Assembly (NCBI GenBank): GCA_964236515.1
Contig: CAXSDA010000014.1
Location: 76,828 to 140,827, forward strand
DNA length: 64,000 bases
Reading direction: 5' to 3'
From: an uncultured Actinoplanes sp.
GTDB taxonomy: Bacteria > Actinomycetota > Actinomycetes > Mycobacteriales > Micromonosporaceae
This document shows positions 25,958 to 64,000 of the stretch, one piece after another. The translations under genes were made by a program, and so were the position numbers. The stretch's first letter is position 1. Each line of letters opens with the position of its first letter. The notes beneath the pieces were generated by a model, which did not search any database, was not told where the DNA came from, and was given only the letters and a program-made list of their open reading frames with translations.

Positions 25958-26716
25958 TCAAATAACTCTTCGCGTTCTCCGTTCGTCGAGATGGCTCTCC
26001 ATGTCTGCAGCATCGCGCGTGCCATCCGAGACAGCCGGCGCCGCCGCTGGCCTGTCCGGGCCTGGCACCACCGCAGCCACCCGGACGAAGCCGCCGTGCA
26101 CCTGCCAGCGTCCGGTCACTTCGGTCAGCGGTGGGTGGCCGTCCCGCCGCGGGCCAGGCCGCAGCAGCCGCGCCGTGAATGAGCCCGATGCGGTGAACCG
26201 AAGCTCCGCCTCTTCAAATCCGAGTTGCCGTTGCCCGGTGAGCGGATACCAAGTTTTGAACACGGTCTCCTTGGCGCAGAACAGCAACCGGTCCCAGTGC
26301 AGGCCGGGCACCACCCGGTGCAGCCGGGCCAGATGGTCGCGCTCGGCCGGAAGTGATACCGCATCCAGGACACCGACGGGCAACGCAGCGTGCGGTTCGG
26401 CGTCGATGCCGATTGCGGCCACCGTGCCGTACAGGGCCACGGCCGCCGCCCGGTAGCCCGCGCAGTGCGTGATGCTGCCGACCACCCCGTCCGGCCAGAG
26501 CGGTTCCCGGTCGGGCCCGCTGGGGATCGCCACCGCCGGCACTCCGAGCGCCACCAGGGCCGCACGGGCGCAGCGACGGGCGGTCACAAACTCGCGGCGC
26601 CGCGACGTCACCGCCCGCGCGACGGCCGCCTCCTCGCCCGGGAACACCGGCTCGTCCGGGTCGTCGGAGTACGCCTCCGCGGTCGCCACCCCGTCCGGTG
26701 TCAGCTGCCCGATCAT
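25958..26716 (-). CDS. 4'-phosphopantetheinyl transferase, PptT/EntD-like
   Basis: RRREFVTARRCARAAL, WPDGVVGSITHC, IGIDAEP, LLFCAKETVFKTWYP; ATGA-coupled to the upstream gene. Confidence 0.94.
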   Translation of the reverse strand: MIGQLTPDGVATAEAYSDDPDEPVFPGEEAAVARAVTSRRREFVTARRCARAALVALGVPAVAIPSGPDREPLWPDGVVGSITHCAGYRAAAVALYGTVAAIGIDAEPHAALPVGVLDAVSLPAERDHLARLHRVVPGLHWDRLLFCAKETVFKTWYPLTGQRQLGFEEAELRFTASGSFTARLLRPGPRRDGHPPLTEVTGRWQVHGGFVRVAAVVPGPDRPAAAPAVSDGTRDAADMESHLDERRTRRVI

Positions 26717-27555
26717 CGCGCCGGCGCGGAGGGGTCGAGCACCGGCCGCAGCAACTCGGGCGGACCGCCCCGGCGCCGCCACTCGCGCGGGTAACCCAGC
26801 GATACCTCTCGGAACGGCACGCCGTCGTGGTGCGTGGTCCGCGGGATGTGCAGGTGCCCGTAGACGGCCGAAGCCGCCCGGAACCGCACGTGCCAGTTGG
26901 CGGTCCGCTCCGTGCCGCACCACTGGGCGAACTCCGGGTAGAACAGCACGTCGGTGGGCTCGCGGACGAGCGGCCAGTGCGAGACCAGGACTGTCGGCAG
27001 CTCCGGGTCGCAGGCCTCAAGCCGTCGTTCGGTCTCGACCACCCGGGCATGGCACCACGCGGCCCGGCTCGGATACGGATCCGGGTGCAGCAGCATCTCG
27101 TCGGTGCAGACCACACCCCGTTCGTACGCCTCGGCCAGCGACTGTTCCTCGGTGGTTCCGGGCGCCCGGAACGAGTAGTCGTACAACGTGAACAATGGCG
27201 AGACGACGATCGGCCCGCCGACGCCGTTCCAGACCGGAAAGTCGTCCTCCGGCGTCGACACGCCCAGCCGACGGCAGACCTCCACCAGTTCGCGGTACCG
27301 GGCCTCGCCGCGCAGCGTGACCGGGTCCTCCGGATGCGTCCAAAGCTCGTGATTGCCTGGCGCCCAAATCACTTTGGCGAACCGCTCGGCCAGCCGGGCG
27401 AGGGTGTCCCGCACGTCGGCGAACAACTCGGCCACGTCCCCCGCCACGATCAGCCAGTCCCCCTCGTCCAGCGGCTGCAGCGCGTCGACGATCGGGCGGT
27501 TCTCGGCGTGGGCGACGTGCAAGTCGCTGACCGCGTACAGGGAGCCGGTGTTCAC
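26713..27555 (-). CDS. Calcineurin-like metallophosphoesterase, PptH-like
   Basis: SDLHV, VAGDV, PGNHELW, VSHWP, YGHLH motifs; GGAGA RBS before GTG 27555. Confidence 0.92.
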   Translation of the reverse strand: MNTGSLYAVSDLHVAHAENRPIVDALQPLDEGDWLIVAGDVAELFADVRDTLARLAERFAKVIWAPGNHELWTHPEDPVTLRGEARYRELVEVCRRLGVSTPEDDFPVWNGVGGPIVVSPLFTLYDYSFRAPGTTEEQSLAEAYERGVVCTDEMLLHPDPYPSRAAWCHARVVETERRLEACDPELPTVLVSHWPLVREPTDVLFYPEFAQWCGTERTANWHVRFRAASAVYGHLHIPRTTHHDGVPFREVSLGYPREWRRRGGPPELLRPVLDPSAPAR

Positions 27556-62500: not shown

Positions 62501-64000
62501 CCGCTCGGACGAACGGAATCGACGGCTCCTGGTACGACAGCGTCGCGGCCACGTGGCGGAACTCCGCGAGCATCGGCTCCATCAGCGGCGAGTGGAAGGC
62601 GTGGGATACGCGCAGCCGCTTCGTGCGGCGCCCCCGGCCCTCGAAGTGCGCCGCGACGGCGACCACCTCGCTCTCGCCGCCCGACAGCACCACGGCCCGG
62701 GGACCGTTGACGGCGGCAATCGCCACCCGATCGCTCAGCCGGGGGGTGACCTCGGCCTCGGTGGCCTCGACCGCGACCATGGCTCCGCCCGGCGGTAGCG
62801 CCTGCATGAGCTGGCCGCGGGCGCTCACCAGGCGGGAGGCGTCGGCGAGCGACAGCACACCGGCCGCATGGGCGGCGGCGAGCTCGCCGACGGAGTGCCC
62901 GGCCAGGTGGTGCGGCCTGATCCCCCACGACTCGAGGAGCCGGAACAGGGCGACCTCGACGGCGAAGAGGGCCGGTTGGGCGTACCCGGTGAGGTCCAGC
63001 CGGGCGGCGTCCGGGCCCCACATGACGGCGTGCAGGTCCTCACCCATCTCGGCGCCGACGGCGTCTAGGGCACGAGAGAAGACCGGATAGGCGGCGTACA
63101 GCTCAGAACCCATGCCGAGCCTCTGAGAGCCCTGGCCGGTGAAGAGGTAGGCCAGCCGGCCGCCCCCGGCCGTCGTACGCAAGATCCCGGGGTCGGATGC
63201 GCCTGCGGCGAGCGCGCTCAGCCGGTGCATCGCGTCGATGTGGTCGTGGACCAGGATGGCGGCGCGGTGCTCGAAGGTCGACCGGGTGGTCGCCAATGAC
63301 AGGGCGACCGCGGCCAGATCGGCCGGCCGGTCCTCGATGGCGGTCAGCAGCGCGCCGGCCTGGGCCTGCAGTGCCTCCGGGGTGCGGCCGGACAGCGTCC
63401 AGGCCACGGTGTTTCCGTTGGGCGCCGCCGCGAGGGCAGGTTGCTCGGCGACACCTTCGACGATCAGGTGGGCGTTGGTGCCGCTGATGCCGAACGAGGA
63501 GATCGCGGCCCGCCGGGGCCGATCGAGTTCGGGCCAGACGGTGTCGGCGGTGAGCAGGGCCACCGCGCCGGCCGTCCAGTCCACGTGCGATGAGGGCCGT
63601 TCGACGTGCAGGGTGCGCGGTAAGGTGGGCTGCTGCAACGCCAGCACCATCTTGATCAGTCCGGCGACCCCGGCGGCGGCCTGGGTGTGGCCGATGTTGG
63701 ATTTCACCGAGCCGAGCAGCAGCGGCCTCGCCCGGTCCCGGCCGTAGGTGGCGAGGAGCGCCCCGGCCTCGATCGGATCGCCCAGCGTGGTGCCGGTGCC
63801 GTGCGCCTCGAGGACGTCTACGTCCTGCGGCGACAGGCCACCCGCGGCCAGCGCCTGGCGGATCACACGTTCCTGGGCACCACCGTTCGGGGCGGTGAGG
63901 CCGTTCGAGGCGCCGTCGGAGTTGACCGCCGAGCCGCGGATCACGGCCAGGACCGGATGGCCCTGGCGGCGGGCGTCGTCGAGCCGTTCGAGTACGACCA
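44532..64000 (-). CDS. Modular type I polyketide synthase, N-terminus outside the window; 4 modules visible; C-terminal docking domain; no TE
   Basis: Uninterrupted frame of more than 6470 aa with repeated KS, AT, DH, KR and ACP motifs; ends ..[17 protein letters not shown]. Confidence 0.98.
44790..49755 (-). other. PKS module D: KS-AT(malonyl)-DH-KR(B)-ACP
   Basis: DTACSS, HGTGT, GHAQ; GHSVG and HAFH; [10 protein letters not shown] and DAALH; LDD and YAAGN; GFDSL; followed by the docking domain. Confidence 0.92.
49810..54652 (-). other. PKS module C: KS-AT(malonyl)-DH-KR(B)-ACP
   Basis: DTACSS, HATGT, GHAQ; GHSVG and HAFH; [10 protein letters not shown] and DAVLH; LDD and YAAAN; GFDSL. Confidence 0.92.
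54710..59710 (-). other. PKS module B: KS-AT(malonyl)-DH-KR(B)-ACP
   Basis: DTACSS, HGTGT, GHTQ; GHSIG and HAFH; [10 protein letters not shown] and DSALR; LDD and YAAAN; GFDSL. Confidence 0.92.
59775..64000 (-). other. PKS module A: partial KS-AT(malonyl)-DH-KR(B)-ACP
   Basis: EAHGTGT and GHTQ; GHSVG and HAFH; [10 protein letters not shown] and DAVLH; LDD and YAAAN; GYDSL. Boundaries approximate. Confidence 0.9.

Follow-up and report, generated by a model that had tools for sequence, protein, structure and literature searches.

What product do the polyketide genes in the right-hand part of a 64,000-nucleotide stretch of an uncultured Actinoplanes sp. genome (contig C14, positions 76828-140827, referred to here as the window) lead to, and what explains their odd gene order? 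The genome is a 7.6 Mb draft in 111 contigs, scaffolded with 10-N gaps. A preliminary description of the window had proposed that positions 25958-64000 hold a new glycosylated polyene macrolide cluster of a rare actinomycete, with a non-collinear assembly line. The present analysis indicates that this region is probably one arm (the accessory and regulatory genes plus the first synthase) of a type I polyketide synthase (PKS) cluster of very roughly 130 kb, which would make an amino-sugar-glycosylated, carboxylated polyene-polyol of the amphotericin/nystatin superfamily and is laid out as in meijiemycin-related clusters. The cluster is real and new, but its kind is well known, and the layout that explains the gene order is already in the literature.

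The region is dominated by one synthase gene, PKS A, on the minus strand, which forms a single uninterrupted 22.7 kb frame from 44532 to about 67229 (window-equivalent) and so runs past the window end. Protein families were assigned with Pfam and NCBIfam, and PKS domains with Pfam and domain hidden Markov models (HMMs) of our own. The part of PKS A within the window (44532-64000) was resolved into four successive modules, each with ketosynthase (KS), acyltransferase (AT), dehydratase (DH), ketoreductase (KR) and acyl carrier protein (ACP) domains:

59718-64000, minus strand: module 1, with the KS cut by the window end, AT 62223-63161, DH 61284-62117, KR 60261-61199, ACP 59784-60002
54663-59717, minus strand: module 2, with KS 58398-59717, AT 57195-58145, DH 56268-57089, KR 55215-56144, ACP 54714-54935
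49773-54662, minus strand: module 3, with KS 53349-54662, AT 52161-53114, DH 51246-52055, KR 50268-51185, ACP 49821-50036
44532-49772, minus strand: module 4 and C-terminal docking domain, with KS 48456-49769, AT 47298-48227, DH 46401-47204, KR 45291-46223, ACP 44793-45011

Alignment showed the malonyl signature GHSxG...HAFH in all four extension ATs. The motif HxxxGxxxxP and the Asp are present in all four DHs, module 2 having DSALR where DxxxH/Q is expected, and all four KRs carry LDD and the catalytic Tyr, indicating the B type. No insert of the size of an enoylreductase (ER, about 300 aa) splits the KR in any module of the cluster in the domain HMM map. The four malonyl modules with B-type KRs, DH motifs and no ER that had been read from the sequence were thus confirmed by Pfam, HMMs and motif alignments, as was the observation that a docking domain (PF09277) closes the PKS and that the next gene, which encodes a VOC protein, is not a PKS gene.

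The N-terminus of PKS A, beyond the window, is a loading module fused directly to the four polyene modules, and consists of a KS with Gln in the active site (KSQ; IDTGQSSS), a dead AT and an ACP. The KSQ keeps its catalytic His residues. The AT is a remnant that covers only positions 1-116 of the 319 in the profile and has GQAEG instead of GHSxG; in an alignment to the complete Streptosporangium and Nonomuraea homologues, Ala stands at the position of the catalytic Ser and nothing corresponds to the C-terminal half. It was also noted that in this loading module (window-equivalent 64728-67193) the GQGSQ motif of the AT is degenerate and its specificity motif deleted, that the KSQ and ACP look intact, and that the full-length Streptosporangium and Nonomuraea loading ATs are of methylmalonyl (YASH) type. 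For comparison, 80 loci around AmphDII-type aminotransferases were drawn from species-representative genomes. In these loci a non-Cys KS carried Ser in 18 of 20 cases (17 DTASSSSL, one DTSSSSSL), and a KSQ was found only in the Streptosporangium and Nonomuraea loci, in both of which the first module is of DH-KR type and fused to KSQ-AT-ACP. According to PMC12843615, non-polyene polyketides typically use KSQ loading, which is unusual among polyenes.

The cluster leaves both the window and contig C14, and further parts were located on contigs C17, C89, C94, C100 and C111. All modular KS domains of the genome (at least 21) lie on C14, C17 (eight and one partial), C89, C94 and C100, and C111 carries an AT-DH piece; in all, about eight PKS proteins and 22-23 modules were found. 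Gene B, with the order docking domain-KS-AT-KR-ACP-thioesterase (TE), is immediately upstream of PKS A on the same strand, just outside the window. Continuing upstream, C14 carries C' with a single DH-KR module, D with two, and the KR-ACP tail of E, which runs off the contig. On C17, gene F (40991-13327, with one 10-N gap) encodes an AmphI-like hexamodule of the type DH-KR / KR / methylmalonyl AT(YASH)-KR / KR / dead KR / KR, in which the dead KR is without Tyr and has a degenerate NADPH motif. Module G1 of gene G, also on C17, combines a DH without the His motif with an LDD-type KR, and module C94a likewise has an inactive DH and a KR. Three methylmalonyl DH-KR modules were found (two on C89, one on C100), and malonyl DH-KR modules with intact motifs are found in G2, D1, D2 and C'. 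Catalytic motifs are kept in all other PKS domains examined, save the canonical dead KR and two DH remnants. In the methylmalonyl DH-KR module on C100, about 100 aa are inserted between the structural and the catalytic half of the KR (4269-5045), too few for an ER; the contig ends there.

The overlaps between contig ends are short (48 nt for C14/C89, 85 nt at 98.8% for the end of C100 against the start of C89, 55-65 nt for C94/C111), too little to order the fragments. The docking domains fall into two types. Tails of D and F end in ...DAMDxDxLVxxAL (type 1), and those of A, C', E, C89a and C94a in ...(E/D)(V/I/M)FxxIDxELG (type 2); heads of C' and G read ...ALRxSxKExxRLR... (type 1), and those of B, D, F, C89b and C94b ...EKLxxYLKRxxxxL... 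(type 2). Under the known pairing of these head and tail classes, F would pair with G and D with C', in line with gene adjacency. Because adjacency assigns C' to B, E to D, C89a to C89b and C94a to C94b, the sole free pair is A with F. The line would then consist of eight proteins in gene order F to B, with PKS A displaced to the end. As the loading module is in A and the TE in the adjacent upstream gene B, the PKS of the window is the first protein of the line, encoded after the last. The non-collinear order claimed earlier is therefore real, with a KS-AT-KR-ACP-TE gene directly upstream of PKS A, but it is not new, since it is documented in meijiemycin-related clusters.

Meijiemycin-type clusters are those of linear polyene-polyols. 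Meijiemycin itself is known from Streptomyces sp. SD50, and predicted hexaene-polyol clusters are found in Amycolatopsis lexingtonensis and A. eburnea (Caffrey et al. 2022, PMC8944477), which are closely related to each other (PMC8944477). In A. lexingtonensis, KS0-AT-ACP, four DH-KR(B) modules and a fifth module make up PKS1, the KRs of the AmphI-like hexamodule PKS2 are of types A / A2 / B / C / B, and DH0-KR(B) opens PKS3 (PMC8944477 supplement). The order, on one strand, is PKS2-3-4-(glycosyltransferase, ABC)-5-6-7-PKS(TE)-(one gene)-PKS1-regulators. A. eburnea PKS1 was found to be KSQ(DTGQSSSL)-AT-ACP followed by five DH-KR modules. Genes A, F and G of the present cluster reproduce the architectures of A. 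lexingtonensis PKS1, PKS2 and PKS3, the PKS1 gene again lies downstream of the TE gene, with every PKS gene on the same strand, DH-KR modules abound late in the line, and an AmphN-like P450, a glycosyltransferase, GDP-mannose dehydratase (Gmd) and an aminotransferase are present in both. There are also differences. Identity is only 54-63% for the loading module and 71% for KS1; PKS1 has four modules here against five, which predicts a pentaene; the loading AT is dead here; no ER or methoxymalonyl module was seen here; and the accessory arm has a type II thioesterase (TEII), an AccD6-type carboxyltransferase, a ferredoxin, a PAS-LuxR regulator, a fused ABC pair and a VOC protein, in a Micromonosporaceae host.

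Trees of KS domains support this relationship, with the loading KS and the module 1 KS as orthologues of those in the meijiemycin-related clusters. The four loading KSQs form one clade (100/100), and the module 1 KS groups with the module 1 KS of Amycolatopsis, Streptosporangium and Nonomuraea (100/99). The KS of modules 2-4 and of F2 are in a polyene-KS group with A. eburnea modules 2-5 and KS7, and the first KS of the two AmphI-like proteins (F1 and A. eburnea KS6) are both outside this group. The position of F1 outside the polyene-KS clade was considered as an argument against the pairing of A with F and was dropped, because the equivalent KS6 of A. eburnea behaves alike.

The sugar, tailoring, supply and editing genes of the window are:

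42730-43800, plus strand: GDP-mannose dehydratase (Gmd, AmphDIII; Pfam GDP_Man_Dehyd, E 2e-119; NCBIfam gmd, 386 bits)
30975-32129, minus strand: AmphDII/NysDII-type GDP-ketosugar aminotransferase, a mycosamine or perosamine synthase (Pfam DegT_DnrJ_EryC1, E 1e-96)
33563-33871, plus strand: small ferredoxin of the [3Fe-4S]/[4Fe-4S] type (Pfam Fer4_19/13/15)
32101-33528, minus strand: AccD6-type acyl-CoA carboxylase beta subunit, i.e. carboxyltransferase (Pfam Carboxyl_trans)
30214-30960, minus strand: type II (editing) thioesterase, TEII (Pfam Thioesterase, E 4e-48)

The defining features of glycosylated-polyene (GPM) clusters were taken from section 2 of PMC8944477. Polyene modules are represented by the four malonyl DH-KR(B) modules without ER in PKS A, the AmphI-like hexamodule by gene F on C17, outside the window, and the AmphDIII, AmphDII and AmphDI functions by Gmd and the aminotransferase in the window and a glycosyltransferase on C17. 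The glycosylated polyene character proposed in the preliminary description was thus upheld, as genes for an amino sugar derived from GDP-mannose occur together with polyene modules. Gmd is 73-79% identical to homologues of polyene clusters, and the aminotransferase (called product 362 aa, start near 32063) is 75-82% identical to homologues of known polyene-producing species, among them S. noursei, S. chattanoogensis, S. rimosus and A. digitatis. Perosamine is the sugar expected of meijiemycin-related clusters; no sequence motif separates mycosamine from perosamine synthases (PMC8944477, section 7). Homologues of the aminotransferase at 58-65% were also seen on contigs of metagenome-assembled genomes labelled Nanoarchaeota, Woesearchaeota and archaeon (DPANN-type), which may be perosamine synthases for surface glycans or binning contamination.

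On C17, a UDPGT-family, AmphDI-like glycosyltransferase and a P450 lie between F and G on the opposite strand. The glycosyltransferase gene, which is broken by an assembly gap, shares 58-65% identity with genes that neighbour the aminotransferase in other polyene loci, and the adjoining AmphN-like P450 (C17 12109-13266) is 66-68% identical to P450s beside the aminotransferase or glycosyltransferase in such loci. An AmphN-type P450 that oxidises the methyl branch to the carboxyl is among the defining features of GPM clusters, and this gene is the candidate for it. The two contigs have complementary contents, as the window has Gmd, aminotransferase and ferredoxin without glycosyltransferase or P450, and C17 has the latter two without sugar genes. 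The ferredoxin is about 60% identical to ferredoxins that adjoin a P450 in Actinoplanes loci and is likely to be the partner of the AmphN-like P450 of C17. TEII is 58-62% identical to TEII genes of other polyene loci.

The carboxyltransferase matches M. tuberculosis AccD6 (PDB 4fb8) over its full length (E 3e-189) and is the only AccD6-type copy in the genome. Homologues (68-70%) were found in blocks of Gmd, PAS-LuxR, LAL and carboxyltransferase genes in four genomes (Mangrovihabitans endophyticus, Actinoplanes sp. NPDC049118, Streptosporangium sp. NPDC002544 and Nonomuraea sp. NPDC050404). As judged from this gene context, the carboxyltransferase is a recurrent, uncharacterised member of polyene clusters of rare actinomycetes, and its probable role is the supply of malonyl-CoA; no literature tying a carboxyltransferase to mycosamine clusters was found.

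In the proposed pathway, KSQ would decarboxylate malonyl-ACP, loaded in trans, giving an acetyl starter, which modules 1-4 of PKS A would extend to an all-trans tetraenoyl chain. This chain would be handed to the AmphI-like protein F, whose first module would add a fifth double bond to complete a terminal all-trans pentaene. The polyene is placed at the start of the chain because the loading module is fused directly to the polyene modules and the AmphI-like protein is the only free docking partner. AmphI-type proteins provide the glycosylated hydroxyl, the methyl branch that becomes a carboxyl, and the hemiketal keto group (PMC8944477). F is expected to do the same, with oxidation of the methyl branch to the carboxyl by the P450 and ferredoxin, so the pentaene would adjoin the glycosylated carbinol, then the carbon bearing the carboxyl, then the hemiketal. 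The chain would then be extended by 12 or more modules, which include many of DH-KR type and three that use methylmalonyl, and on release by the TE it would become either an acid or a lactone whose pentaene is exocyclic. Because no hydroxyl would be present upstream of the pentaene, a nystatin-type ring cannot form along this route, and the predicted module order speaks against the macrolactone ring around the polyene that belongs to the GPM definition. Gmd and the aminotransferase would make GDP-mycosamine or GDP-perosamine, the AccD6-type carboxyltransferase would raise malonyl-CoA, TEII would edit, the ABC pair would export the product, and LAL, PAS-LuxR and the SARP-type regulators of C17 would control expression. 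PptT, the only Sfp-type phosphopantetheinyl transferase (PPTase) of the genome, would activate the ACPs. Tentatively, the product may be a structurally new amino-sugar pentaene-polyol in which a head of amphotericin type, with sugar, carboxyl and hemiketal, is combined with a terminal pentaene and a long polyene-polyol tail that bears methyl branches, its synthesis being initiated by a KSQ module with a dead AT whose loading ACP is malonylated in trans. To our knowledge, a KSQ with a dead AT and a trans-malonylated loading ACP has not been described for polyene synthases. If the structure is correct, the pentaene-polyol scaffold could act on membranes differently from the classical sterol-sponge polyenes.

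The label of macrolide, in its classical sense, was not supported, since the polyene modules follow directly after the loading module and the architecture and order of the PKS genes are those of meijiemycin-related polyene-polyol clusters. It is judged to be decidedly unlikely that the product is a glycosylated polyene macrolide of the classical kind, as in nystatin, amphotericin or 67-121, with the four modules supplying the mid-chain polyene segment or a side chain and a lactone ring enclosing a polyene. The likeness to the amphotericin (amph), nystatin (nys) and pimaricin (pim/scn) clusters is real: the AmphI-like hexamodule, AmphN-type P450 and ferredoxin, AmphDI/DII/DIII homologues, TEII, ABC pair and LAL and PAS-LuxR regulators are shared, so that all hallmark genes are there; the aminotransferase is 75-77% identical to the S. 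noursei and S. chattanoogensis enzymes, and PKS A 56% to ScnS1/SgnS1. Moreover, the aminotransferase, ABC pair, TEII and ferredoxin are most like those of classical or Actinoplanes-type clusters, and modules G1 and C94a, if they acted ahead of a second stretch of polyene, could provide the hydroxyl for ring closure. However, classical clusters load by KS-Ser or CoA ligase on a separate protein, followed by KR-only modules that give the lactone hydroxyl, whereas here KSQ loading is fused to the four modules, which therefore begin the chain; intact DH-KR pairs abound in the late modules, which sets these apart from the polyol-forming proteins of NysJ/NysK type, and a second P450 is lacking. PKS A is matched with the AmphI-like protein by docking classes and adjacency, and gene order and KS phylogeny fit the meijiemycin-related class. 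With 67-121C and partricin-type clusters (Couchioplanes, Actinoplanes) the present one shares Micromonosporaceae hosts and an aminotransferase 76% identical to the A. digitatis enzyme, and its ABC pair, TEII and ferredoxin are matched best in loci of Actinoplanes and Mangrovihabitans. These loci, through which the comparison was made, have the order ABC-ABC-LAL-glycosyltransferase-aminotransferase-P450-ferredoxin-TEII, unlike this cluster. Loading of 67-121 presumably involves p-aminobenzoate and a CoA ligase, in contrast to the KSQ-derived acetate predicted here.

That the cluster is instead a decaying relic without a product is unlikely, but several findings point that way. Compared with its Streptosporangium and Nonomuraea counterparts, the loading AT lacks the Ser and the C-terminal half, a precursor-supply sub-cluster (a 2-alkenoyl-CoA carboxylase/reductase, CCR, and KASIII) survives only as fragments, the accessory arm contains transposase debris, and the cluster is absent from about 30 relatives. 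On the other hand, the 22.7 kb frame of PKS A is unbroken, the KSQ retains its His residues, and the other PKS domains keep their motifs apart from the dead KR and DH remnants named above. The decayed genes are not needed by a PKS that uses malonyl and methylmalonyl units only, and precedents exist for loading ACPs that are charged in trans. It is extremely unlikely that the PKS genes of C14 and those of C17 and the small contigs belong to two clusters, the window then being a smaller polyene system, non-glycosylated or differently tailored. No physical join of C14 and C17 was recovered, and the end overlaps (C14-C89, C89-C100, C94-C111) are short, but these contigs hold every modular KS of the genome, the sugar genes and ferredoxin of the window complement the glycosyltransferase and P450 of C17, and docking heads and tails balance in number only when all pieces are pooled.

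Several points weigh against the reading of the region as one arm of a meijiemycin-like cluster. The likeness runs via clusters that a review calls meijiemycin-related and not via the meijiemycin cluster itself. Enzymes of classical mycosamine clusters are the closer matches of the aminotransferase, at 75-82%, against 68% for the Amycolatopsis and 70-71% for the Streptosporangium/Nonomuraea clusters. The assembly is fragmented (10-N gaps, five or more contigs), and the 22-23 modules compare with 29 in A. lexingtonensis; PKS repeats beyond the window were probably collapsed. Module number and order beyond PKS A were inferred, and unassembled PKS genes could break the pairing of A with F. The dead loading AT, the dead CCR and the insertion sequence (IS) debris may point to a silent or decaying cluster. 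Finally, no PimM-type operator (CTVGGGAWWTCCCBAG) was found: the window has one site with two mismatches (44392-44407), such as 26% of shuffles yield too, and the two C17 stretches have none.

With regard to novelty, high identity and synteny to a characterised cluster were looked for and none was found, in agreement with the earlier proposal. PKS A is at most 57% identical to any of the 5.8 billion proteins searched, the best match being a partial PKS of Phytohabitans houttuyneae (7843 aa) with five DH-KR modules and no KSQ. The aminotransferase had no match above 82% identity. The loading module was not found above 56% identity in any of 30 relatives, and an AmphDII-type gene (69-77% identity) occurs in three of the 24 listed same-genus relatives. 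Mangrovihabitans endophyticus and Paractinoplanes bogorensis are grouped as same-genus relatives though their PptH is only 69-72% identical, and the genus grouping appears to be broad. Glycosylated polyenes serve as front-line antifungals, and there is an active search for new scaffolds. Since genome mining has already yielded more than 250 glycosylated polyene clusters (PMC8944477), a further one is unsurprising. The present cluster stands out in having no close relative, in coming from a little-studied Micromonosporaceae lineage with about 30 sampled relatives without it, in combining the meijiemycin-type layout, with the polyene at the chain start, with classical-type sugar and tailoring genes, and in its dead loading AT. 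It is a reasonable target for activation and structure work, without conceptual novelty.

Regulatory, export and further genes of the arm are:

33889-34671, minus strand: PAS-LuxR regulator of the PimM/NysRIV type (Pfam PAS, GerE)
35469-38285, plus strand: LAL-family regulator with AAA ATPase and C-terminal LuxR helix-turn-helix (Pfam AAA_16, GerE)
38349-42745, minus strand: pair of fused permease/ATPase ABC exporters (38349-41054 and 40790-42745, long open reading frames that overlap; Pfam ABC_membrane, ABC_tran)
43956-44468, minus strand: VOC/glyoxalase-fold protein, directly downstream of PKS A (Pfam Glyoxalase)

The PAS-LuxR regulator is 41-45% identical to homologues in polyene loci, and the ABC pair 45-57% to pairs in Actinoplanes and Mangrovihabitans polyene loci. 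SARP-AAA regulators are encoded farther along C17. No homologue of the VOC protein was found within related clusters. NCBIfam gives the protein a weak similarity, below threshold, to the AfsK-binding protein KbpA (E 3.5e-9), and a Ser/Thr kinase gene lies at 24259-26025 (minus strand), at the left edge of the region; a regulatory link between the two is conceivable.

At the left border and in a decayed stretch beside it the following were found:

25958-26923, minus strand: 4'-phosphopantetheinyl transferase of PptT/Npt type, Sfp class (Pfam 4PPT_N, ACPS; NCBIfam PptT/Npt 238 bits, cut-offs 365-370)
26713-27585, minus strand: PptH-like metallophosphoesterase (Pfam Metallophos)
27802-28617, plus strand: CCR pseudogene, CinF-like, in at least three reading frames and without N-terminus
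28618-28803, plus strand: KASIII (FabH-like) gene fragment (weak Pfam ACP_syn_III match)
28889-29122, minus strand: DUF5988 small protein, in the decayed stretch (Pfam PF19450, E 3.9e-16)
29232-29818, both strands: IS5-family DDE transposase remnants (Pfam DDE_Tnp_1_2 on 29483-29818, plus strand; GC dips to 0.65)

All of the accessory genes that had been listed for the region (Gmd, NysDII-like aminotransferase, ferredoxin, TEII, ABC pair, PAS-LuxR, LAL, carboxyltransferase, VOC, DUF5988 and PptH/PptT) were recovered where they had been placed. Their unfamiliar combination proved less telling than had been thought: PptT/PptH are housekeeping genes, the carboxyltransferase recurs in four uncharacterised polyene clusters and the CCR is debris, which leaves the VOC and DUF5988 genes without a counterpart in the compared clusters. 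The stretch 27600-30200 is gene wreckage. The CCR, already described as dead, matches CinF (PDB 4a0s) with fragments (27802-28507) in different frames, one corresponding to residues 44-115 (E 1.8e-28) and another frame to residues 133-166 and 247-304, and no intact CCR paralogue was found in the genome. The KASIII fragment has one other genomic match, a region of contig C2 (58% over 67 aa). The CCR, KASIII and IS pieces are decay debris; as all ATs seen are of malonyl or methylmalonyl type, CCR and KASIII are not needed. No DUF5988 homologue was found in the 80 polyene loci or in the other compared clusters.

GC content is about 0.72, falls to 0.63-0.70 over the accessory arm (28-44 kb) and is 0.72-0.75 in the PKS. 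Positions 1-25000 of the window hold ordinary genes (glutamine-synthetase-like, TetR, GGDEF-EAL, MFS, MMPL, ricin-lectin, Ser/Thr kinase). Just left of the cluster, 20979-23195 (plus strand) encodes a 738-aa secreted-looking protein with two ricin-B lectin domains, in a stretch of low GC (0.63).

PptT and PptH are each single-copy in the genome (tblastn) and, as sole copies, are taken to be a housekeeping neighbour at or beyond the cluster border. The true start of PptT is probably near 26716, because the long open reading frame overlaps the upstream gene. PptH homologues are 70-77% identical across Micromonosporaceae and other actinomycetes, and the best named matches (74%) are from Paractinoplanes and other Micromonosporaceae, which together with the listed relatives places the host in this family and agrees with the rare actinomycete named at the outset. 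A 244-aa PptH fragment on a 3 kb contig is 98% identical to that of the window, pointing to a near-identical strain or a duplicate public record. The PptH-PptT pair also adjoins polyene genes in Cryptosporangium sp. NPDC051539 (order TEII-PptH-PptT-aminotransferase-P450-glycosyltransferase, 7667-13657 of its locus), P. bogorensis and M. endophyticus (order LAL-carboxyltransferase-PptH-PptT, 8427-12292 of its locus), which suggests that polyene clusters are repeatedly associated with the housekeeping PPTase locus.

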